From Pseudomonadota bacterium (lineage in GTDB: Bacteria; Bdellovibrionota_B; Oligoflexia; Oligoflexales; RGVZ01), in contig JBEGVZ010000128.1 of NCBI GenBank assembly GCA_041178085.1, forward strand, positions 1 through 47,081: a stretch of DNA of 47,081 nt. The letters are read 5' to 3'. Numbering within the stretch: position 1 is the first letter of the stretch; each line of letters opens with the position of its first letter. The position numbers and the translations under genes are program-made. The notes beneath the pieces are model-generated. The model had not been told where the DNA came from and ran no database searches. It saw only the letters and a list, made by a program, of their open reading frames with translations. Shown here piece by piece: positions 1,241-40,476 of the stretch.

Positions 1241-2071
1241 TCAGGGTTTGACTTCTTCTTTCAGCAGGACTTTCAGAACATCTTTGGGCAGGCCCGGCAG
1301 TGCCTTTTGCAAGTAGCGCTCGTAAACCTTGCTGTAAGGATCTTTCTGCTGCTCCGCGCTGAGTGCATCCACGTAGGACTTGTAATACTTCTCATGGGCC
1401 CGCGGAGAAAAGGCGACGAAAACGTTCCACAAGGGGTCTGGCAACCGGATCGCAACAAAGTCCTCTAGTATTTTCATCTCCGATGCCATGAAAACCAGCT
1501 CGCCAATAGTCGGTGAATAGACGCCGTCCAGCCTGTCCCGGCGTGCCATCCGCAGCGATATTTGCAAGGCGTCATCGCCAGGCTGGTAGCTAATCCGGTC
1601 TTTGATCTTCTTCATGGTTTCGGTGAGCGGCATCCCTCCCTTGGTCCCGATCCGGAGGTTTGTTTTGCCTTCAAGCTCCTTCCAGGTTTTTACTCCCAGG
1701 CGCCTGGACACCAGGATGCCCGGAATCGTCGCGGTGAATGGGGCGGTCGGCTTCACGGCAAGGGACGGATTCGCGCCGATGCGGTTGATCAGGTCGATCT
1801 CGTTGCTGTTCACTTTGGAGATCAATCGCGACAGTGGCAGAAACTCGTACTTGAAGCGTACTCCCATCCGGGTCCCGATTCGTTCCAGGAATTCGTACGC
1901 AGGCCCCCCGGGCTTGCCGTCCATGTGCAGGCTGTCCGGCGGGACGTGATTGTAACCCACCTTCAATGTCGGGGGATCGTTTGCCGGAAGTGAGGGACCC
2001 GCCCCCTGAGCAAGGGTGGTCCAGTGCGCCAACATCAATCCGGCAACGGCCGGGCGGATAAAGTATTTCAT
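1241..2071 (-). CDS. Family-3 (amino acid type) extracellular solute-binding protein, orphan
   Basis: Signal peptide; LKVGYNHVPP, G..YEFLERI, LPLSRL, RLDG motifs typical of SBP_bac_3; GGAG RBS upstream. Confidence 0.75.
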   Translation of the reverse strand: MKYFIRPAVAGLMLAHWTTLAQGAGPSLPANDPPTLKVGYNHVPPDSLHMDGKPGGPAYEFLERIGTRMGVRFKYEFLPLSRLISKVNSNEIDLINRIGANPSLAVKPTAPFTATIPGILVSRRLGVKTWKELEGKTNLRIGTKGGMPLTETMKKIKDRISYQPGDDALQISLRMARRDRLDGVYSPTIGELVFMASEMKILEDFVAIRLPDPLWNVFVAFSPRAHEKYYKSYVDALSAEQQKDPYSKVYERYLQKALPGLPKDVLKVLLKEEVKP

Positions 2072-2119
2072 GGCTCCATTTTAACCCATAAATGGTCGTT
2101 TTCCATGACCCTTTCGGGG

Positions 2120-2148
2120 GTGACAATTGGTGGGCCTGGGAATAGACT
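2120..2148 (+). promoter_or_regulatory. Candidate sigma70 promoter GTGACA-N17-TAGACT just upstream of ATG 2156 (possible leaderless transcript)
   Basis: GTGACA 2120-2125, 17-nt spacer, TAGACT 2143-2148; ATG at 2156 with no obvious SD. Confidence 0.45.
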
Positions 2149-2155
2149 TTTGCCC

Positions 2156-5100
2156 ATGAAACACAGCAGATTGCAGGATAACGATCCGGTGTCATTCCAG
2201 ATTCCGTACTATAGCGATTACATTTCACCTGCACTGGCGCGACACCTTCTGGCCCGTGGTACCCCGGTTGCTGGGGTAAATGGTTTGTTGGAGGTAGGAA
2301 AGGGCGGCGGACTGGAAAACCCGGATTCGCTTCGCTTCCTGGTCGAGCTTTACCGCAGGGTACAGCCTCATCTGGCCAGGGTTTTGAAGCGCCGGCAGGC
2401 CGATCGCAAGTTCATCGACGAACGCGTACGCGCCTGCTTTGAGTTCAATCGCAAGATCGGTCGCGACATTCATGATGTGGATTATAAGACGGTCATAGGC
2501 CTGGAGGACTCCGAGGGCCGCGTGGTGGTGGGGCCCAAGGGTGCGCACTATTCCGCTGGTGGTGGCAAGCCGGTTGCGCCGATCCCCGAATATCTTCAAG
2601 GTCCTCACGTCACGCTTTTTGGCCCTCCCGATTCAGCCAAGATGGCAATCAATGCCATGAACGCCTGGCATCGCAAGCTGAAGGGCGAGCCGGCAGTCGT
2701 GGAAAAACTTCTGGTCGCGCGACCCGTTGCTCCCAAGTGGGGTGCTGATGACGAGGATTCAAAAACCCCGATCCGTCAGGACTTGCTCGATGCAGCCGTT
2801 AATCTGACGGGTTGTTTCAATCGCAACTTGGAGCTCAGGGAGGGGGATCGTCATTACCGCCTTGCGAGTGAAAACCTGTCGGCGCCCATCAAGCGTTTTC
2901 CGGGGCTGGCCCTTCCTTGCACGTTTCTGTTTCTTGACGGCAATCCGCTTCCCCTTCACATGTACGATTTTGCGTTGCATCTTTACGAAAACTGGCGAAC
3001 CCCGGAAGCTCTTTGTTTTTATGTTCCCAAGCTGGAAAACGAGGAAGAGGCTGCCTACATCCATGACATGATCACGCAGGCCGAGGCAATGATTCGCGAG
3101 ATGCACCCGCAGTACCAGGCGGGCACGGTACGCTTGATGATTGTTCTGGAGAATCCCCGTGCAATCCTGCGCGCCCACGAAATCATGGATGCCCTCTATC
3201 CCTATTTTGCCGGCGCATCCCTTGGCTGGCATGACTACCTGGGATCCACGGCGCGCCTGTTCAAGGAAGACGGTAACTACCGGATTCCGGTCAAAGCCGA
3301 TCCCAACATTGTGATCAAGTACATCAAAGCCTCTCACTCCCTTCTTGCTGATGTTGTCGGGTCGCGGGGCGGCATCAAGGTTGGTGGAATGTACGGCATC
3401 CTGCCAGTTCAGGCCGATCTTGCCAGCCCCTCATTCCAGGTCACGCTGAAAGGATTTTTCAAGGACGTGATCACGCAAATGAAGCGAGACCTGACGGGAT
3501 TCTGGGTGGCTCATCCTGACTTTGTGCGCCTTGGCATCGCGCTTGTCCAGGCCTGGGAACGCCATGCCAAAGGTGACTCTGGGCCGCTTGCAGAACTGGT
3601 CGATGGCATTTTTACGACGGACGCCCACCGCAAGGAAGTGATGAATTTCATCCATGGTCCTGACATGGAGGGGTTGGACCCGGGTCACCCGAACTACGTT
3701 CGCTCCCTGCTGGTCGCGGATATCAAGGAATCTGATTTCATCGCCAATAACCATCCGGATGAAATCCGGTACAACGTCTTCCAATCCCTGCAATATTTGA
3801 CTGACTGGCTGTGTGGCAACGGGTGCGTCGCATTGCCCACAGTCGTAGACGGTCTTCCTGTTCGTGTGATGGACGATCTGGCCACGGCCGAAAGATCACG
3901 TTGGGAAGTCTGGCACGAAATCCGCCACGGACGGTTCAAGGTCGAGGAATTCCTGCGCATCGCGCATGAAGAAATGCGTTTTATCCGGAAGGATCTTTCC
4001 GATGGCAAGAAGATCGTCCAGGTAAATTACGATGAACGTACGGCGAAATGGTATCCAGTCGCCTTCCGGATCATGATCCTGCTCATGACTTCAGAGAAAC
4101 CAGTGGAATTTGCGCCGGAGCTTCTGATGCCATTCACGGTGGATTCCATTCGCCAAGCTGATGATCCGTGGAGTGCAGTGCTGGCGATTGATCCGGAAAA
4201 ATACACCGCTGATCCTCTCATCGAGCGATGGAATTACATTTTTGAGCGTATCAGCTGTGCGGCGCTGGCCAATGATCTGTCGCGCGGTCCTGTGCTCGAT
4301 CCGGCAGCAGTCGAATTGCGGATTAAAAACTTTACGGTAGAGGAAATCCGGGAGGCAGCTGGGTTTCACGGCGACATTGGTGAGGCGCCTCGATCGCTGG
4401 ATCACCTTGCCAAGGGCGAACAGAAACTGGTCAGCACGGGTAGCGACCCTTTGCGCGAGGAATTGCGTGCGCTGGGCCAGTCTTATCTTGAACGCCACGG
4501 TTTCAAGTTCCTGGTTTCCGCGCAGGGGAAGTCGGGCGAGGAACTGCTCGCCGTCCTGAAGAAAAGGATCCAGCAACCAACTCAGTCTGAAATTGAAAAC
4601 GCGCGGGAGGCTCTTTGGCAGATCGCCCGGAAGCGGATCAGCGCCAGCCCCTTTGACGATGTCCGGGAACAGGTTGCTGTGCTGGCAAGAAACCATGGCA
4701 TTTGCGGCGTTCAAGTGGCTGTCGCTGACCGGCACGGAGTCAGTGATATCTGTGAGGGACTGGTCCAGCCGGATGGGCATCCGGTAACACCGACGACACT
4801 TTTTGAGATTGCATCCCTGAGCAAGTCGGTCGGATCCGCTTTTGCGTTGGAGTATTTTTCGGCTCGCGGCATCTCCCTGGATACCAAAGTCAACGAATTG
4901 CTGCGCCGGTCGGGTTCACCGGTTCGTTTGCAGTCTTCTGGGGATCCCTCGTGGGCCGAAGAAGTCTCTTTGACCCACTTGATGTCTCATTCAGCGATGA
5001 ACATGCACTATGTGAAGGGCGTGGATCGTCGGCGTCCGATGCCACGCGCGATTGATTTTCTTGCTTCCGGTGCAGAACATGGATACGAGCCGATTCAAGT

Positions 5101-6895
5101 CGTCGGAAAGCCCGGTTCCCGTTTCCGGTACTCGGGTGGCGGTTTCATCGTCCTTGAACACCTGATCGAAGCCCTGGAAAAACGCTCCATTGAGGACGTT
5201 ACCCGGCAGTTTCTTGACCGGATTGCTGGTACGGGATTGACGTTTGGACAACATCCGGAAAGTTCGCTGGCTGTTGCGGCCGGCCTGTTCGATCATGGCC
5301 AGATGGTTCCCGGCGGGCGACTCAATTTTCCGGCCTTTGCGGCGGGAGCCCTTGGATCTGCACGGGGCATGATTACTTTTCTCCGCCATCTGCAGGTTGC
5401 CTTTAAAGATCTCGAAGGTTCGGGCGTAATTTCCCACGACACTGCAGTTTGCATGCTCCGTGGCCGCGACCTGGGTGCCCGGGAGTTCATGGGCTGCGAC
5501 ATGGGTCTTGGAGTTTTCGTTGCCGAGATGGGAGCCAACCGGGTGGCGATCCACCAAGGTGCCAACGAAGGTTTCCGTGCAATTTACTTACATGTTGTCG
5601 ATGGTCCTGACTGCGGCAAGGGATTTGTCATCTTATGCAACGCCGATAACCGCGGCGTGCTTTTCATCGCCGAAGTTGCGTCTGTACTCTTCAAGCATCT
5701 CAAGCTGTCAGGCCTGGACATGGACAAACTGGGCGGAGCCTTTGACTTGAAGGCCTTCACACAGGAACAGATCGTCAACGCCGGTTACAAGCAGCTACTG
5801 TTTTCTGCGTTCCAGCCGACCTTGCCTGGGGCGATTGAGCGGCATCCCGGTGACAAGCGTGAACCCCTGTGGGACAGGAATCTTTTGGGTGAATCCCTGA
5901 TCCTGTCCGCGAGCAACCAGCGTTTTGCCCGTGCAGAAAATCTGGTCAGCCCTTATGCCCCCGTTTTTGATCCAATGCTGTACGACCCGCAAGGCAAGGT
6001 GATGGACAGTTGGGAGACGTCGCGACACAACGACCTCCCATGTGATTTCCTTGAGTTGCGCATGAAGCGGCCAGGCCAGCCGCGCTTTGTCAGGCTGTCG
6101 ACGGAATTCCACGACGGCAACCAGGCGCCTTTTGTCCGGATTCTTGGGCGTTCCAGCCAGGTCGATTCCTGGCATGAACTCCTGCCCATGACGGCAATGG
6201 ATGGTCATTCGGAGCGACTTGTTTCGGTCGCGAATGCGGGACTGATCCATGACGTCCGGATCGAGATTCACCCCGATGGTGGACTTTCTCGCGTGGGGCT
6301 TTACGAGGATATTCCAGAGGAATGGCTGCCCCGCTTCAAGAATCTGGCAGAGTCAACGTGTGCGCGCCATGCACAGCCGATTCCTGTGCCACAAAAGCCA
6401 CTCACGATTCCTTATAAGTCGAGCTCCAAAGACACGGCTCAGTACGTGGCCAATGCCCCCGAAATCGACTGGGCATCGGCAGCATCTGGTGCGACAGTAT
6501 TGCTCGCAACCAACGAACATTATGGTCCTGCAGCCCAGGTGATTTCGCCGTTTCCGGCAATCCACATGTTTGATGGGCTGGAGTCCGCGCGCAGCCGGAA
6601 GCCTGGCCATTATGAGGAAGTTGTAATCCGCCTGGGCAAGGAAGTGACTCCGGGACGGATCGTTTTCGACTTCCAGCACTTCGTGAACAATAATCCGCGA
6701 TTTGTCCAGGTCTTCGGCAAGAAGGATGGAGATTGGCGGGAGTTGACGCCCCCGATCGCTGTGAAGGCTTTTGCTGGGAATTTGAAAGAGGTCAGGCTCG
6801 AGGCCGCTTTCAAGACCGGAGAAATATTGGTCCGGACTCTGCCGGACGGTGGCATCAACCGGCTTCACGTCTTCCAGGCAAAAGCCGGAGATTGA
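2156..6895 (+). CDS. Four-domain fusion: malate synthase A + OHCU decarboxylase + beta-lactamase-family serine hydrolase + allantoicase
   Basis: Malate synthase (~2156-4200): DDEDS, YVPKLE, VLEN, GWHDY, GFWVAHPD, GNGCV, MDDLATAERSR. OHCU decarboxylase (~4230-4640): HGDIG, EQ, YLERHGFKFLV..GKSGEELL, IARKR. Serine hydrolase (~4660-5710): FEIASLSK, LMSHS, FRYSGGG, HQG. Allantoicase double repeat (~5870-6880): MDSWETSRH/FDGLESARSR, PDGGLSRV/PDGGINRL. Start placed at ATG 2156 because the track start at 2024 overlaps the divergent gene. Confidence 0.9.
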   Translation: MKHSRLQDNDPVSFQIPYYSDYISPALARHLLARGTPVAGVNGLLEVGKGGGLENPDSLRFLVELYRRVQPHLARVLKRRQADRKFIDERVRACFEFNRKIGRDIHDVDYKTVIGLEDSEGRVVVGPKGAHYSAGGGKPVAPIPEYLQGPHVTLFGPPDSAKMAINAMNAWHRKLKGEPAVVEKLLVARPVAPKWGADDEDSKTPIRQDLLDAAVNLTGCFNRNLELREGDRHYRLASENLSAPIKRFPGLALPCTFLFLDGNPLPLHMYDFALHLYENWRTPEALCFYVPKLENEEEAAYIHDMITQAEAMIREMHPQYQAGTVRLMIVLENPRAILRAHEIMDALYPYFAGASLGWHDYLGSTARLFKEDGNYRIPVKADPNIVIKYIKASHSLLADVVGSRGGIKVGGMYGILPVQADLASPSFQVTLKGFFKDVITQMKRDLTGFWVAHPDFVRLGIALVQAWERHAKGDSGPLAELVDGIFTTDAHRKEVMNFIHGPDMEGLDPGHPNYVRSLLVADIKESDFIANNHPDEIRYNVFQSLQYLTDWLCGNGCVALPTVVDGLPVRVMDDLATAERSRWEVWHEIRHGRFKVEEFLRIAHEEMRFIRKDLSDGKKIVQVNYDERTAKWYPVAFRIMILLMTSEKPVEFAPELLMPFTVDSIRQADDPWSAVLAIDPEKYTADPLIERWNYIFERISCAALANDLSRGPVLDPAAVELRIKNFTVEEIREAAGFHGDIGEAPRSLDHLAKGEQKLVSTGSDPLREELRALGQSYLERHGFKFLVSAQGKSGEELLAVLKKRIQQPTQSEIENAREALWQIARKRISASPFDDVREQVAVLARNHGICGVQVAVADRHGVSDICEGLVQPDGHPVTPTTLFEIASLSKSVGSAFALEYFSARGISLDTKVNELLRRSGSPVRLQSSGDPSWAEEVSLTHLMSHSAMNMHYVKGVDRRRPMPRAIDFLASGAEHGYEPIQVVGKPGSRFRYSGGGFIVLEHLIEALEKRSIEDVTRQFLDRIAGTGLTFGQHPESSLAVAAGLFDHGQMVPGGRLNFPAFAAGALGSARGMITFLRHLQVAFKDLEGSGVISHDTAVCMLRGRDLGAREFMGCDMGLGVFVAEMGANRVAIHQGANEGFRAIYLHVVDGPDCGKGFVILCNADNRGVLFIAEVASVLFKHLKLSGLDMDKLGGAFDLKAFTQEQIVNAGYKQLLFSAFQPTLPGAIERHPGDKREPLWDRNLLGESLILSASNQRFARAENLVSPYAPVFDPMLYDPQGKVMDSWETSRHNDLPCDFLELRMKRPGQPRFVRLSTEFHDGNQAPFVRILGRSSQVDSWHELLPMTAMDGHSERLVSVANAGLIHDVRIEIHPDGGLSRVGLYEDIPEEWLPRFKNLAESTCARHAQPIPVPQKPLTIPYKSSSKDTAQYVANAPEIDWASAASGATVLLATNEHYGPAAQVISPFPAIHMFDGLESARSRKPGHYEEVVIRLGKEVTPGRIVFDFQHFVNNNPRFVQVFGKKDGDWRELTPPIAVKAFAGNLKEVRLEAAFKTGEILVRTLPDGGINRLHVFQAKAGD

Positions 6896-10716: not shown

Positions 10717-10767
10717 AGATCCCCGGACAGGCTCATGCGCACTCCGTTTTTTGAGGGGCAGCAACCA

Positions 10768-11361
10768 ATGGCAATCACTGTTTTTGATCGCAACTCCCGT
10801 CCTGATCCTTGCACCCTCTCCCTGTTGGCCTGGCTGCCTACCGGAAGCTTTCCGCATCTGATTGCGAAGGAATTCTGGCCCTTGCTGTCAGATACGGACT
10901 TGATGCGCATCGCTGTGCTGCTGGCTCTCAAGAGCCATGAAGAGGGTGGGTGCCCGATTGGTGCCGTGGTCATGGAAAACTCATCGCGTCGCATTGTAGG
11001 CAAGGGCCACAACACACTGGTTCAGGAGAATCATCCCTATAACCACGGAGAGACTTCGGCCATGCGCGATGCCGGATCGATTGATTACAGCGCTACGACC
11101 ATCTTCACCACCCTGACGCCCTGCAAGGTCTGTGCAACCCTCATGGTGGAGCGGGGCGTTTCCCGCGTGGTTATCGGCAACAGCCCTGATCCAGATAATA
11201 ACGAGGATTTTTTGCGCGCAAATGGTGTGGACGTGGTGCGCCTGGATGATCCCATGGGGATTGAGTTGTATGCGCGGTACCGCGCCGCGAAACCAGATCA
11301 GGATCTGGTGGATTGGAGGGGCGTCGCTGCGTTACGGAGAAAGAGCGGGCTGGAATCATGA
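10768..11361 (+). CDS. Zn-dependent nucleobase deaminase, yeast FCY1-type cytosine deaminase-like
   Basis: EGGCPIGAV, GHN, HGE, TTLTPCKVC, RVVIG; GAGGGG RBS before ATG 10768; ~40-aa N-terminal extension. Confidence 0.8.
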   Translation: MAITVFDRNSRPDPCTLSLLAWLPTGSFPHLIAKEFWPLLSDTDLMRIAVLLALKSHEEGGCPIGAVVMENSSRRIVGKGHNTLVQENHPYNHGETSAMRDAGSIDYSATTIFTTLTPCKVCATLMVERGVSRVVIGNSPDPDNNEDFLRANGVDVVRLDDPMGIELYARYRAAKPDQDLVDWRGVAALRRKSGLES

Positions 11362-12425
11362 CGCGGATTCTTGAGTCTCTTGGTGATTTAGCAACCATGG
11401 CCCTGCGGCGATTGCCTCCTGAATTGGCGCATGATGCTGGCGTGGCCGCGCTGGCGTCAGTCGCAGGACAGAGGCTTGCGCAGCTTGTCTCCGTTCCGCA
11501 GGACAGCCGCTTGCAGGTCGTTCTGCCTGGAATCGGCAAACTACAACACCCAGTCGGCCTTGCCGCTGGATTTGACAAAGATGCAAGGGCGATTCCCTCT
11601 TTGGCTGCGCTTGGATTTTCATACATCGAGGTTGGCGCAGTCACTCCACGTCCGCAGCCAGGTAACCCCAAGCCCCGGCTTTTTCGATACCCCGGGGAAG
11701 GTTCGTTGATCAATCGCATGGGTTTCAACAGTGCCGGAGTCGACACGATCCAGCAACGTCTGGTGCAGCTGGGCTGGGATAATGAGGCTTGTCCGATCGG
11801 TATAAACCTTGGCAAGAACAAGGACACTCCCCTTGAAGAGGCCCATCGGGATTACCTGACGGTCCAAGACAAACTTCGCAACCTGGCCAGGTTTTTTGTG
11901 GTCAACGTCAGCTCTCCCAACACACCTGGGCTTCGCTCCCTTGCAACGCCGGCTTTCCTCAAGGAACTGGCATCTGGTTTCGGTGATGACCTCCGGCGTG
12001 TCTGGGTCAAGTTTGATCCTGATATGGAAAAGCCTGTCTTTCAGGATCTGGTAAGTGCGGTGGCTCAATTAGGCTACGCGGGTCTTGTGCTGTGCAATAC
12101 GCACCGTGTGGAGCGGCCCGAGCCCGGAGGGCTTTCAGGGCGGCCCGTGTTGAACCTGGCCAATCAGGCCCTGACTTGGGCCTGGGAAGTTCATCGCGGA
12201 AGCACACCTATGATTGGTGTAGGCGGTATCATGACGGGTAAGGATGTCTTGAACAAGGTTGCCCTTGGTGCAACCGCAGTCCAGATCTATACATCTTTCG
12301 TTTATTCTGGCCCCTGGGTTGTGGCGCGCATCCTTAATGAGATCCGCGAGTCGATGGATCAGGCTGACATTTCAAGCCTTGAGTCCATGCGCGGCAGCGC
12401 ATACAGCGGGCACGTTTCCAAGTGA
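11358..12425 (+). CDS. pyrD: Quinone-dependent dihydroorotate dehydrogenase (class 2)
   Basis: PVGLAAGFDKDA, PQPGNPKPRLFR, INRMGFNS, NLGKNK, VNVSSPNTPGLR, GGLSG, IGVGGI; ATGA overlap with the deaminase stop. Confidence 0.95.
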   Translation: MTRILESLGDLATMALRRLPPELAHDAGVAALASVAGQRLAQLVSVPQDSRLQVVLPGIGKLQHPVGLAAGFDKDARAIPSLAALGFSYIEVGAVTPRPQPGNPKPRLFRYPGEGSLINRMGFNSAGVDTIQQRLVQLGWDNEACPIGINLGKNKDTPLEEAHRDYLTVQDKLRNLARFFVVNVSSPNTPGLRSLATPAFLKELASGFGDDLRRVWVKFDPDMEKPVFQDLVSAVAQLGYAGLVLCNTHRVERPEPGGLSGRPVLNLANQALTWAWEVHRGSTPMIGVGGIMTGKDVLNKVALGATAVQIYTSFVYSGPWVVARILNEIRESMDQADISSLESMRGSAYSGHVSK

Positions 12426-35828: not shown

Positions 35829-37211
35829 TCAAACCAGACCGCGTCCCTGCAGGATCCGCAGGAAAGACCGGGTCTGGATTTCCTCCAGCGTCAAACCAGT
35901 GGCCGTTGCTTCTGCCTGGGTGATTGCACCGCAGTTAAGGCCCCGAAGGAAGAAGTTAAGCAAGCCTTGAGCTGTCGCGGCATCGTCAAAGACCGATCCG
36001 TGTAGGGTTGCTTGCGCGGCTTTGTTGATAAAACCCTGCAGGCGTTGCGAAACCTGGTCCAGGCTCTCCATGAAAAAAGCGTGCATGGCAGCATAACGGA
36101 CCGGGATTTGCGCTGGATGCAAATCCCAACCCTGATAGTAGCCGCAAGATAGCGCATGGCGGATGTTCCGGTAAGACAGCATCCACGCGGCATGCACAGC
36201 GCGCGCATTCTGTGTTTGCTGCTCCCTGGTAAGGGCAGAAGCTGTCTTTTCCCGATGAACTGGAACGGGCATCACGTTGGTGGCGCCGTCCGAAATATGG
36301 ACCGGAGTACCGGCAAGGCTCACTTGCAGCACATGACGAGCGAAGTCGCAGGCCGGGCTGTCAAGAGCCTGCGCCGAAGCGACCAGTTCACAGCTTGAAG
36401 TGTAATCGTAGGCCCCAAGGTGGGCTCCTGTGCAGCGTCCATCGGCGGCATCCAGGATGGACCGGATCGCTGAGCGACCCGTGTGGTCAATGATGACCTG
36501 CGGGCATTCAACCATGATCTCGAACCTGAGTGACCTTGGCTTCAACTTGCGTTTTTTCTCTACGGCCGCAAGCAATTCCGCCATTGTGCGGGAGTGTTCC
36601 GGCACCGTGATTTTGGGTAAGGTGATGACGAAGTTATCTGGCAGGCGATTACCCGATGCATCGAGCAACTCCGTCAGAAAGAGGCCAAGCGTCCGGATGC
36701 TGCGGGTCCGGTTTTCCAGGTTGAACGGTTTGATGCGAAAGCCAACGAAGGGCGGCAGGGTGCCGGTGCGCATGCCGGTCGCAAGTTCACGCGCCGCAGA
36801 CACAGCGTGTCCGTCCTCCTCTGAATCGGGACGGTTTCCGTAACCATCCTCGAAATCGATGCGAAAGTCCTCAACGGCTTCGGCTTTGAGCTTCGCAATG
36901 ACGCGGCCGTGCACTTTTTCTGCGAGGACGTGATCCATTTCAAAGATGTCCGCAAAAACCCTGGCGTCGGGCGCCCAGCTGGTCATGGCGTTGATGGCAT
37001 GATCACGGATTTTTGCGGCAGTTCCGGCCGTAAAGAGGTGCGCACCACCATAGACCGTGTGCACCGGCTGTCGCCTCTCGCTCATGCCAGTGTATCGTCC
37101 GGCGAATGCGCGATTTGCGCGGTCGAGGCGGTTGATGATCGATGGCGCTCCCGTACCGAAAATCGCCGGCAAGGCTGTCTTGTTGCGGCCGCTTGGTTTT
37201 GATGCTGCCAT
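35829..37211 (-). CDS. HpcH/HpaI-citrate lyase beta (CitE)/malate-synthase-fold enzyme (DUF6986-like)
   Basis: RQPVHTVYGGAHLF, DFRIDFEDGYG, TLPKI, FEIMVE.PQ, H.GAYDYT, SDGATN, QGWDLHPAQ; last gene of the puuD-uraH run. Confidence 0.75.
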   Translation of the reverse strand: MAASKPSGRNKTALPAIFGTGAPSIINRLDRANRAFAGRYTGMSERRQPVHTVYGGAHLFTAGTAAKIRDHAINAMTSWAPDARVFADIFEMDHVLAEKVHGRVIAKLKAEAVEDFRIDFEDGYGNRPDSEEDGHAVSAARELATGMRTGTLPPFVGFRIKPFNLENRTRSIRTLGLFLTELLDASGNRLPDNFVITLPKITVPEHSRTMAELLAAVEKKRKLKPRSLRFEIMVECPQVIIDHTGRSAIRSILDAADGRCTGAHLGAYDYTSSCELVASAQALDSPACDFARHVLQVSLAGTPVHISDGATNVMPVPVHREKTASALTREQQTQNARAVHAAWMLSYRNIRHALSCGYYQGWDLHPAQIPVRYAAMHAFFMESLDQVSQRLQGFINKAAQATLHGSVFDDAATAQGLLNFFLRGLNCGAITQAEATATGLTLEEIQTRSFLRILQGRGLV

Positions 37212-37224
37212 GGTCAGGTCCCGC

Positions 37225-37581
37225 TCAGCTGCCGCGGTAAGTTGAGTACCCAAACGGACTCAGCAAAAGCGGGACGTGATGGTGGCGACCGGCGTCAGTG
37301 ATATTGAAGGTGATTTCCACTACAGGGAAGAAAGAGGTTTCTCCCTGGGTTTTGAAATATTCGCCGGTGGAGAATGTCAGGCGGTAAGTGCCCGTGGATA
37401 CAGGCTGTCCGGGAGGTAGAAGAGCTTCGCAGCGACCGTCGTGATTGGTGCGGCTTTCGTTCATGCGTTCGAATTTGCCATGGCGGTGGTGCTCAAGGAG
37501 CACCGGCACACCAGCCGCAGGCAGACCGGTTTTCAAATCCAGTACGTGAGTGGTGACAGGGCTTCGTGGTTGCGTGTTCAT
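37225..37581 (-). CDS. uraH: 5-hydroxyisourate hydrolase (transthyretin-like)
   Basis: TTHVLD..G.PA, TN.DGR, FFP, HHHVPLLLSPFGYSTYRGS. Confidence 0.96.
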   Translation of the reverse strand: MNTQPRSPVTTHVLDLKTGLPAAGVPVLLEHHRHGKFERMNESRTNHDGRCEALLPPGQPVSTGTYRLTFSTGEYFKTQGETSFFPVVEITFNITDAGRHHHVPLLLSPFGYSTYRGS

Positions 37582-37604: not shown

Positions 37605-38792
37605 TCAGTTGTCCGTGATCGGAGCACCAGCGTCCACCCAGCGCCCGAGAATTTGGCGTTCCTCTTCCGTGATGTTCGTCTTGTTCCCAAACGGCATTGT
37701 GTGGGAGTCGACTGCGCGGAATTTGATGCGCGCTGCGAATGCCTGGGCAGTGCGTGGGTCGTCAAACATCATTCCTGCCGGTGCTACCGTGAACACATCG
37801 TCGGTCGGATTTTGCGAGTGGCATGTCGTACACCGTGTCTGGATGATCCCCCAGGCTTCCGAGAACTTTGGTGGTGGCGAACCGTCCCCAGACGCTTTTT
37901 TCGGGGCTGCAGTCACAATGATAGCGGAGAGGACTGCGATCACTGGCAGCGCCAGCCAAGCGACCCGGGGTTTGGCGATGATCTGCATGTGCCGGATTGC
38001 CCCGCCGACAAAAGTCATTCCCAGCAGGATCACCCAGCTCCACGGTCCGGAGTAGGTGGACGGGAAGTGGTTGCTGATCATGATGAACAGGACAGGCAGG
38101 GTCATGTAGCTGTTGTGGACACTGCGCGTTTTTGCGGCCTTGCCCAGGTTGTAATCCGGGGTGCGGCCCTCCCGGGTGGCGTCGATCATGGACTGTTGGG
38201 CTGGCAAGATCCGCACCCAGACGTTCAGAACCATGATCGTGCCAAACATGGCCCCGACGTGGATAAACGCACCACGCCCGGTGAAGATCTGGCTCAGCCC
38301 CCAGGAGATCGCGGCCGTTGCTGCGTAGCAGATGGCCAAGGCAAAAGTAGAGTGTTCCTTTGCAAAACGGGATTTCCATAGCAAATCGTAGAGGATCCAG
38401 GTCGCAGCCAGCACGCCAATCCCAATGGCCGATGCCGTTCCGTGGCCAATACTGGTCTTGGCCGGGTTGATCAGGTAGGCCGAGTCGGACAGGTAGTACA
38501 CGACCGCAAGCAGCGTGATACCACTCAGCCAGGTGAAAGTGGCCTCCCACTTGAACCAGTGCAGGACCGAGGGCATGGACCCGGGGCCGATCAGGCGCTT
38601 CTCAACCTGATAGAAGCCGCCACTGTGGACCATCCAAAGCTCTCCCTCAACCCCCTCCCGGGGCTTGGCTGGTGCCTCCAGGGCCTTGTCCAACCACATG
38701 AAATAAAAGGAGCTTCCGATCCAGGAGATGCCGGCTACCAGGTGAAACCAGCGCAGGGCAAGATTAAGCCATTCTGAGAGGTAAGAATTCAT
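37605..38792 (-). CDS. puuD: Urate hydroxylase PuuD (membrane domain plus C-terminal cytochrome c)
   Basis: LRWFHLVAGISWIGSSFYF, W.VHSGGFY, LHWFKWEA, RSVHNSYMTLPVLFIMISNH, CTTCH heme motif, MP.GN.T. Confidence 0.95.
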   Translation of the reverse strand: MNSYLSEWLNLALRWFHLVAGISWIGSSFYFMWLDKALEAPAKPREGVEGELWMVHSGGFYQVEKRLIGPGSMPSVLHWFKWEATFTWLSGITLLAVVYYLSDSAYLINPAKTSIGHGTASAIGIGVLAATWILYDLLWKSRFAKEHSTFALAICYAATAAISWGLSQIFTGRGAFIHVGAMFGTIMVLNVWVRILPAQQSMIDATREGRTPDYNLGKAAKTRSVHNSYMTLPVLFIMISNHFPSTYSGPWSWVILLGMTFVGGAIRHMQIIAKPRVAWLALPVIAVLSAIIVTAAPKKASGDGSPPPKFSEAWGIIQTRCTTCHSQNPTDDVFTVAPAGMMFDDPRTAQAFAARIKFRAVDSHTMPFGNKTNITEEERQILGRWVDAGAPITDN

Positions 38793-38916: not shown

Positions 38917-40476
38917 GTGCTTGTGGATTTTTTGAGGTATGTGGACCTGATCATTGTCGGAATCACGATGGCGATCGTGGTCAGCCTTTACTTCCTTAAC
39001 AATCCACTCAAGCACAGCAAAAAGTTCATGTGGCACCGCTTCGTGAACTGGTTCGCGCTCGGCATGACTTACGCGTTCCTTTACATGGCTCGTTATAACC
39101 TGAGCGTATCGAAGAACGCTCTGGGCGATCTGATGACCAAAAAGGACTTTGGACTGATCTTTGGGGTCGGGACTTTTGCCTATGGACTCAGTTTCCTGAT
39201 CACGGGCCCCATGGTGGACCGGATGGGTGGACGGAAAGGGATGCTCTTCGCGGCCATCGGATCTTCCTTTGCGAACATCCTGATGGGGGCTGTTCTTTTC
39301 TACTTCCTGCACGGCGGGCGGGCGATCAACCTGACCCTGACGATGGCGATTCTCTATTCCCTGAACATGTTCTTCCAGAGCTACGGCGCGGTTTCGATCA
39401 TCAAGGTCAAGGCCTATTGGTTCCACGTCCGGGAACGCGGTCTTTTCGGTGCAATTTTCGGGACATTGATCTCTTTCGGTGTCTACTTCGCGTTTGACTG
39501 GGGGCAGGCGATTGCCGACGCCGTGAAATTGAACCCCACCGCGGAATTGTCGCCTTTCCAGCAATTCCTGCGGACGGCCTTTGCGGTCGAGATGGGCCGG
39601 ACCGATGCTTTCTGGTTCGTGTTCTTTATCCCGGCGCTGCTTTTGATCTTCTGGGCACTCATCGATGCATGGCTTCTGAAAGATTCACCAGCTCACGCGA
39701 AGTTCGGCGACTTCGATCCGCACGATGCCTCCAGTGACGACGGAGAGGTTGACCTGGCGGTCAAAGCCCTGCTCAAAAAGATTTTTACCAATCCTGTCCT
39801 TCTGACCATTGCTTGCGTTGAATTCACGTCGGGGGTCCTGCGCAACGGAATCATGCAGTGGTATTTTGTGTTCGCGAAGGAAGTCCCCCAGATTGGTGCG
39901 GAGTTTTTCCTGAAGCATTGGGGCCTGTTGATCTGCATGACCGGCATTGTCGGCGGATTCACCGCAGGGATCTTGTCCGATCGCCTGTTCCAGTCCCGCC
40001 GTGGTCCCCCTGCCGCCATCATGAGTGGTTCGATGGTGGTCCTGACCGGTTTGATGATCTACGCCATTCCCGATCATCCTGTGCTGCTGGGTGCTTGTGC
40101 CATCACCATGATTCTGTCCGTGATTGGCGTTCATTCGATCATGTCGGGGACAGCTGCGGCAGATTTCGGGGGCCGCAAGGCCACCGCAACCGCTTCGGGC
40201 ATTGTGGACGGCTGTGTGTACCTGGGCAGCGGACTGCAGTCGATTTCCCTGGGGTACCTGACTACCAAAAACTGGGCCTACTGGCCGATGTTCCTGTTTC
40301 CGTTTGCGGTTCTTGGTACGGTTTTCGCGTGGCAGATCTGGCATCAACTGCCAGAGGCAACCAAGCGTTACTTGCGCACGGTTGAAAAGGTCAACGTGGC
40401 CGCAGACAAGCCAAAACGCAAGCGTCGCGGCGGAAAGGCTGCCGGTATCGGCAAGGCCAGGACCAACGACGCGTGA
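38917..40476 (+). CDS. MFS transporter, GlpT/UhpT (OPA)-like
   Basis: YAFLYMARYNLS, G.MVDRMGGRK, WF..RERG, AG.LSDRLF..RRGP, ATASG.VDG..Y.G. Confidence 0.85.
   Translation: MLVDFLRYVDLIIVGITMAIVVSLYFLNNPLKHSKKFMWHRFVNWFALGMTYAFLYMARYNLSVSKNALGDLMTKKDFGLIFGVGTFAYGLSFLITGPMVDRMGGRKGMLFAAIGSSFANILMGAVLFYFLHGGRAINLTLTMAILYSLNMFFQSYGAVSIIKVKAYWFHVRERGLFGAIFGTLISFGVYFAFDWGQAIADAVKLNPTAELSPFQQFLRTAFAVEMGRTDAFWFVFFIPALLLIFWALIDAWLLKDSPAHAKFGDFDPHDASSDDGEVDLAVKALLKKIFTNPVLLTIACVEFTSGVLRNGIMQWYFVFAKEVPQIGAEFFLKHWGLLICMTGIVGGFTAGILSDRLFQSRRGPPAAIMSGSMVVLTGLMIYAIPDHPVLLGACAITMILSVIGVHSIMSGTAAADFGGRKATATASGIVDGCVYLGSGLQSISLGYLTTKNWAYWPMFLFPFAVLGTVFAWQIWHQLPEATKRYLRTVEKVNVAADKPKRKRRGGKAAGIGKARTNDA

Follow-up and report, generated by a model that had tools for sequence, protein, structure and literature searches.

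A bacterium that encodes urate oxidase and 5-hydroxyisourate (HIU) hydrolase, with neither of the known allantoinases, poses the question of how it opens the ring of allantoin. The case considered here is a stretch of 47,081 nucleotides (the window) from contig JBEGVZ010000128.1 of a bacterium of the order Oligoflexales (assembly GCA_041178085.1). At positions 2156–6895 of its forward strand the window encodes a four-module purine-catabolism fusion, the third module of which (4658–5818, forward strand) is a hydrolase domain of the beta-lactamase fold with an S-x-x-K motif, here called the SxxK domain. Two types of allantoinase are known, the metal-dependent AllB and the metal-independent PuuE/HpxB (PMC13751858; PMC6983136; here and below, papers with PMC numbers are cited from excerpts). 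Judged from sequence comparisons, the SxxK domain is probably a third family, serine-dependent, metal-independent and unrelated to AllB and PuuE. The fold is known and the pathway is known; their pairing would be new.

The fusion lies in a single open reading frame (2024–6895, forward strand) with the modules in the order malate-synthase-like, 2-oxo-4-hydroxy-4-carboxy-5-ureidoimidazoline (OHCU) decarboxylase, SxxK and allantoicase-like. Along it Pfam places the malate synthase TIM-barrel and C-terminal domains, OHCU decarboxylase, Beta-lactamase and two Allantoicase repeats. A preliminary description of the window had placed the hydrolase domain between OHCU decarboxylase and allantoicase; that order holds, and all three are modules of one frame, which also starts with a malate-synthase-like domain. 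The frame is open from a GTG at 2024. Its homologues begin at a Met equivalent to the ATG at 2156, and in an independent assembly one contig covers the whole stretch, differing by 52 substitutions and by one gap of 1 base at 2108, which lies before that ATG. ATG 2156 is therefore the likely start, giving 1579 amino acids, and because the independent contig spans the whole stretch the fusion is no assembly artefact. At three other loci (L132, L133 and L036) a stop splits the fusion between modules, setting the malate-synthase-like part apart from OHCU decarboxylase–SxxK–allantoicase, so the modules can probably work apart.

The SxxK domain matched Beta-lactamase (PF00144) with an E-value of 9e-23 and 81.3 bits, against a gathering cut-off of 27. 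Motif I, S-L-S-K (4814–4825), holds Ser887, the putative nucleophile, and Lys890 (numbering from ATG 2156); motif II, Y-S-G, or Y-S-G(G) in the window (5129–5137), holds Tyr992; and motif III reads H-Q-G-A-N-E-G-F-R (5552–5578). All three are on the forward strand and in one frame, intact and where the preliminary description had read them. Its span of 4660–5710 for the domain falls short at the end, however, which reaches about 5818 through a conserved C-terminal V-N motif. Homologues were collected by a protein search restricted to 868–2764 residues, a length limit that selects fused forms; the best 120 of its 327 matches all carried PF09349, PF00144 and PF03561, and in all 120 Ser887, Lys890, Tyr992 and His-Gln-Gly 1133–1135 were invariant. 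Scanning GTDB contigs with a profile gave 195 confirmed relatives. In the best 80 of these loci, nearly all labelled Oligoflexales, Bacteriovoracaceae or Bdellovibrionales, the SxxK domain was always fused to allantoicase; 76 had all four modules and 4 were cut by a contig end.

Foldseek matched an AlphaFold model of the SxxK domain (predicted local distance difference test score 89.5) to class C-type SxxK hydrolases with an E-value of 5.5e-19. The best structural match of the model was the IS11 esterase 7spn (Z 34.4, root mean square deviation 2.8, 335 residues aligned, 21% identity). Since the fold match has a Z of 34.4 and the catalytic residues are invariant in the 120 homologues, the SxxK match is not due to chance. 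Matches in the ESM Atlas were to generic beta-lactamase clusters only. A quick tree of 95 rows separated the 75 rows of the subfamily, stand-alone and fused, from 20 generic CubicO-like rows with an SH-aLRT support of 97. The catalytic Ser, Lys and Tyr were kept in 72–74 of 74–75 subfamily rows. Particular to the subfamily were an H-Y-V-x-G segment (5006–5020, forward strand; Tyr in 72/75 rows, Val in 70/75, and 0/20 in generic relatives), the Gln of motif III (67/75 against 0/20; the third position is Ala in 34/75) and the C-terminal V-N motif, which was present in 66–67 of 69 rows, whereas generic relatives hardly ever aligned there. The YSGGG and H-x-G-x-N motifs were common to both groups.

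The genome to which the window belongs (G000, 96% complete) has adenine and guanine deaminases, xdhABC, puuD, uraH, and uraD and alc domains. In the window puuD (37605–38792, reverse strand; PF06181) ends 23 bases before uraH (37225–37581, reverse strand; TIGR02962, 144.7 bits against a cut-off of 87.45). That allB and puuE are missing beside these two genes had been remarked on in the preliminary description; profile searches found neither in the window, nor in the whole genome. The best match to the AllB profile TIGR03178 in G000 (220 bits, cut-off 358) is the dihydroorotase of a pyrB-pyrC-carA operon, and its five PF01979 proteins are a guanine deaminase, a TRZ/ATZ-type hydrolase, an adenine deaminase, the dihydroorotase and an imidazolonepropionase. 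There was no match in G000 for puuE (TIGR03212), PF01522, allA, PF01968 or urease. The steps left without a known gene are allantoinase and ureidoglycolate lyase. PF01968 hydantoinase/oxoprolinase was considered as a substitute and occurs in G045 and G056; as it was not found in G000, G104 or G105, it is no general substitute for allantoinase. Urease had no match in four of the five genomes tested (G000, G075, G056 and G104), and the pathway may for this reason be less a source of nitrogen than a means of recovering carbon or disposing of purines from prey.

The distribution of the domain was compared with that of allB in 435 genomes. These comprised 104 genomes of the window's own phylum, at least 85% complete, and 331 of a second phylum, that of G104, asked for at 90% completeness. 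In the own phylum two of 25 profile matches (G101 and G103; 112–123 bits, partial) were left out as generic relatives, leaving the domain in 23 genomes; allB was over cut-off in 6, allantoicase was present in 27 and puuE was over cut-off in none. The corresponding numbers in the second phylum were 50, 29, 79 and 0, so that puuE (TIGR03212) was over cut-off in none of the 435. Across both samples allB exceeded its cut-off in 1 of 73 genomes with the domain, and in 33 of 34 that had allantoicase and lacked the domain; within the own phylum it was found in 0 of 23 domain genomes. The single overlap is G344, which encodes an AllB–OHCU decarboxylase fusion of 617 amino acids (L122, 7386–9236, reverse strand) and also holds an SxxK-allantoicase, a canonical allantoicase and two malate-synthase-like genes. 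The one domain-negative, allantoicase-positive genome without allB (G379) has its alc gene cut by a contig end. Sub-cut-off TIGR03178 matches in G105, G108, G398 and G422, checked individually, were dihydroorotases. The same either-or contrast between domain and allB was seen again within f1, f7 and f14, three families of the own phylum. Allantoicase was present in 72 of the 73 domain genomes, and the domain in 1 of 329 allantoicase-negative genomes; the one exception in both counts is cut by a contig end. As the domain and allantoicase co-occur because they are fused, the informative figure is the absence of allB. The flanking steps are kept where allB is absent, as expected of a replacement.

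Gene neighbourhoods pointed the same way. Among the best 80 GTDB loci, uraH was present in 60, puuD in 55, xdhB in 18 and DUF6986 in none; of the 30 loci with at least 20 kb, 29 held both puuD and uraH. No other gene family recurred besides purine genes and generic regulators or transporters, and the sole amidohydrolase was a dihydropyrimidinase (L014). According to the preliminary description, homologues that occurred with allB or puuE and were unlinked to purine genes would speak against an allantoinase; the opposite was found. The PuuD homologues upstream of uraH beside many fusions (L014, L017, L025, L033, L080 and others, many of them from Bacteriovoracaceae or Bdellovibrio) are about 530–570 amino acids long, compared with about 395–410 for PuuD in the window and in allB operons. 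Purine clusters of both types also contain a class V aminotransferase like the aspartate–glyoxylate aminotransferase BhcA (207 bits, below cut-off; L121, 4730–5848, forward strand, and L106, 6420–7547, reverse strand), a possible glyoxylate sink.

A genome of the same genus showed which genes had been exchanged. Genomes with allB typically carry an operon puuD-allB-alc-uraD-uraH-DUF6986 (L105, L106 and L130; in part L127, L128 and L131), and in G075 this operon stands beside a major facilitator superfamily (MFS) gene 85.8% identical to that at 38917–40476 of the window. The window retains the MFS gene, puuD (74.5% identity to G075), uraH (69.0%) and, as the last gene of the operon remnant, DUF6986 (35829–37253, reverse strand; PF22484, E 3e-166; 63.7%). 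Its 23-base gap between puuD and uraH corresponds to allB-alc-uraD of G075. Exactly allB, alc and uraD are absent from the remnant; a uraD and an alc module come, together with the SxxK domain, from the fusion 30 kb away.

In 10 of the 13 allB loci examined, the purine operon of the allB type ends with DUF6986. In the own phylum DUF6986 was found in 14 of the 23 domain genomes, mostly as a more divergent copy. A second, more divergent class (G058–G070, G029; about 245–395 bits) occurs throughout genus g2, in each of its 13 genomes. No solved relative of DUF6986 was found by sequence, and no mention of it in the literature matched by full-text search. DUF6986 alternates with AllA and the malate-synthase-like module and is therefore a candidate for a ureidoglycolate lyase or for an enzyme that consumes glyoxylate; now one and now another of these three seems to occupy the lyase slot.

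The companion modules bear on how the steps are divided within the fusion. The OHCU decarboxylase domain (4307–4639, forward strand; PF09349, E 9e-18), which would make (S)-allantoin, scored below the NCBIfam cut-offs; its His at 4367 and Glu-Gln at 4418–4423 were invariant in all 120 homologues. The two allantoicase repeats (5897–6877, forward strand; PF03561, E 3e-39) are divergent from the canonical enzyme and form a type of their own, with conserved DSWE-x-x-RH and DG[LF]ES-ARS-type motifs as against canonical DGWE-x-RR. The malate-synthase-like domain (2246–4129, forward strand; PF01274/PF20659) aligned with E. coli AceB at an hhalign probability of 100 and 27% identity. It is the best conserved part of the fusion (68% mean identity), and no other malate synthase A homologue was found in G000. 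All 112 sequences compared have G-W-H-D-Y where E. coli has G-R-W-D-Y, Arg276 being replaced by Trp; Trp365 is kept. Equivalents of R166, E250, D278, C438 and D447 and of K101/M102/N105/A106 are also kept, and these we take to be the catalytic and coenzyme A (CoA)-binding residues of malate synthase. DrMSL is a model for this module: Arg276 is changed in both, to Ile in DrMSL, and DrMSL has lost the presumed CoA-binding residues that the fusion keeps together with Trp365. Changes at Arg276 and Trp365 and loss of the acetyl-CoA site are the criteria for proteins of the DrMSL type, and malate-synthase-like proteins are proven ureidoglycolate lyases in animals (PMC10120013). The module of the fusion may be a synthase, a lyase or both.

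Several observations weigh against the allantoinase assignment. Two genomes have both allB and the domain: G344, and G106, an 11.3-Mb metagenome-assembled genome among five extra genomes outside the 435, where allB (493 bits) accompanies the fusion. The genomes counted are kin and not independent, and with at most five candidates scored per genome of the second phylum some allB could be missed. Fisher tests on the counts take no account of kinship and are given no weight here. In that phylum DUF6986 occurred in 0 of 50 domain genomes, compared with 24 of 29 allB/canonical-allantoicase genomes. Since the cassette is thus exchanged in one piece, mutual exclusion does not by itself show which step the domain performs. 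The solved structures closest to the domain are esterases and peptidases, at about 21% identity. Moreover, the fused allantoicase scored 153.5 bits against the TIGR02961 cut-off of 277.9, although its Pfam repeats pass; given this score and the altered motifs, the last two modules might share the work in some other way. The preliminary description had also taken the order of the modules to mirror that of the reactions. The order OHCU decarboxylase, hydrolase, allantoicase is indeed present; as an argument it is weak alone, the N-terminal module being the one that would act last.

Genomes with a lyase of their own help to assign the step. In G045 (96% complete) allA lies directly upstream of a 747-amino-acid SxxK-allantoicase gene, with uraD, puuD, uraH and xdh beside it; no allB, puuE, DUF6986 or malate-synthase-like module was found in this genome, only an ordinary malate synthase A. 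In a transcript labelled Polykrikos kofoidii (P0211), SxxK, AllA and a canonical allantoicase (348.5 bits, cut-off 277.9) are parts of one protein, which ends in SKL; its SxxK domain groups in a quick tree with stand-alone forms, not with the bacterial fusion. As both keep the SxxK domain beside their own AllA, only the allantoinase step is left for it, and a role as ureidoglycolate lyase is weakened. We therefore think it unlikely that the domain acts in the same pathway on a later ureide, allantoate or ureidoglycolate, while another module, perhaps the malate-synthase-like domain or the divergent allantoicase-like repeats, opens allantoin. Such an arrangement would fit the divergence of the fused allantoicase and the lack of an allA match in G000, and if the malate-synthase-like domain is a true malate synthase, as the residue roles that we assume would allow, the lyase step would be open too. 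Against it, DUF6986 coexists with the domain in the own phylum, which allB never does, and malate-synthase-like proteins have been shown to be ureidoglycolate lyases in animals (PMC10120013).

It is quite improbable that the domain is an ordinary CubicO-type esterase/amidase or an inactive spacer, and that a moonlighting dihydroorotase or an unrecognised fourth enzyme opens allantoin. The structural matches to esterases and peptidases, the motifs shared with generic relatives, the allB genes of G344 and G106 and the dihydroorotase found in most domain genomes checked would all agree with this; the near-perfect association with allantoicase, the separation of the subfamily from 20 generic relatives with conserved residues of its own, and the lack of any other recurrent family in the 80 loci would not. 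In G104, recorded as a complete genome and carrying xdh-puuD-uraH-fusion (L080), there was no TIGR03178 match at an E-value of 1e-40, and the only three PF01979 matches were neither allantoinase nor dihydroorotase. Because this genome has the fusion and no such match, a moonlighting cyclic amidohydrolase is unlikely as a general answer. That the domain is a true beta-lactamase or peptidoglycan peptidase is extremely improbable. The fold, the S-x-x-K motif and weak NCBIfam class C matches (20–24 bits) suggest it, but NF033085, with a cut-off of 415 bits, was matched at 20–23 bits, and motifs II and III are Y-S-G and H-Q-G/A in place of Y-x-N and K-T-G, which we take to be those of class C. The domain is, besides, internal to a fusion of cytoplasmic type, and its protist forms often end in a peroxisomal targeting signal type 1 (PTS1).

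If the SxxK domain is an allantoinase, xanthine dehydrogenase, PuuD and UraH would lead to OHCU, from which the OHCU decarboxylase domain would produce (S)-allantoin. In SxxK chemistry a serine attacks a carbonyl, Lys and Tyr acting as the base and relaying protons, and the acyl-enzyme is then hydrolysed by water; the ring carbonyl of allantoin, an acyl-urea, is a good target for a nucleophile. Ser887, activated by Lys890 and Tyr992, would attack this carbonyl, the hydantoin ring would open as an acyl-enzyme on Ser887, and water would release allantoate. The allantoicase-like repeats would then yield ureidoglycolate and urea, and the malate-synthase-like domain would release or consume glyoxylate. 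In this scheme we infer the substrate, the acyl-serine chemistry and the roles of the other three modules. Y-S-G, the Gln and frequent Ala (for Gly) of motif III, the H-Y-V segment and the C-terminal helix would fit a dedicated pocket, small and polar, rather than one for beta-lactams or peptides.

The domain shares its fold, S-x-x-K and Tyr motifs with the IS11 esterase (7spn), a Pyrococcus penicillin-binding protein homologue (2qmi), SurE (6ksu), D-amino acid amidase (2dns), LACTB, the R61 DD-peptidase and EstB. It differs from these class C-fold hydrolases in identity (at most about 23%) and in its Y-S-G and H-Q-G/A-A-N motifs, and it alone among those compared has the H-Y-V segment, the C-terminal helix and fusion or linkage to purine catabolism. 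We know of no class C-fold SxxK hydrolase that acts on a ureide. AllB/DAL1, a cyclic amidohydrolase, has the same proposed reaction and the same purine-operon slot in the same phyla, but it is a binuclear-metal TIM barrel (PMC9863593; PMC13751858), and TIGR03178 had no match to the fusion frame or the SxxK domain. PuuE/HpxB, which converts (S)-allantoin to allantoate (PMC6983136), is a precedent for non-homologous replacement of allB, with a polysaccharide-deacetylase fold that differs from that of the domain. A Ser-Lys dyad opens a cyclic acyl-urea ring in cyanuric acid hydrolase and barbiturase, the AtzD family (PMC4051656), which has an unrelated three-fold fold and different substrates. 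Full-text searches, covering few subscription journals, found no literature that joins a beta-lactamase-fold or serine hydrolase to allantoinase or describes the fusion; the word "lactamase" is absent from the excerpts of PMC10120013 and PMC9244630, and "serine hydrolase" from that of PMC13751858.

Stand-alone members of the SxxK subfamily turned up in searches for shorter proteins and among 50% representatives, the named sources being Aureococcus anophagefferens, Phaeocystis cordata and transcriptomes of other protists; Amoebophrya has a fused form. The best 80 of 326 metagenome relatives comprised 55 fused and 25 stand-alone forms. Counted by what we take to be the PTS1-like pattern, such a C-terminal tripeptide was present in 17 of 24 stand-alone forms with a complete end, some of which may be near-copies, compared with 0 of 55 fused forms and a background of 4 in 1743 long frames of G000. 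We infer a eukaryotic origin for these PTS1-ending metagenome forms. In Guillardia theta, urate oxidase and allantoinase carry peroxisomal signals (PMC9244630). It is probable that a third, beta-lactamase-fold allantoinase family with a serine nucleophile occurs in about one-sixth of the Bdellovibrio-like genomes sampled (73 of 435), where one polypeptide would carry out all four reactions between OHCU and glyoxylate or malate. Several lineages of protists would have the enzyme on its own in the peroxisome, and there it may be the unrecognised allantoinase.

If so, a classic reaction would have a third unrelated fold, the first with a covalent serine mechanism, and the beta-lactamase fold would gain a role in central nitrogen metabolism. 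The hole that predatory bacteria, and probably algae and other protists, have in this pathway would be filled, and corrections would follow for genes whose present label is 'serine hydrolase', 'CubicO peptidase' or 'malate synthase'. A metal-free allantoinase could also find use in allantoin sensing. Elsewhere in the window, at 10735–12425 on the forward strand, a gene of the cytidine deaminase family overlaps a dihydroorotate dehydrogenase gene, an ordinary arrangement that is unrelated to the SxxK domain.

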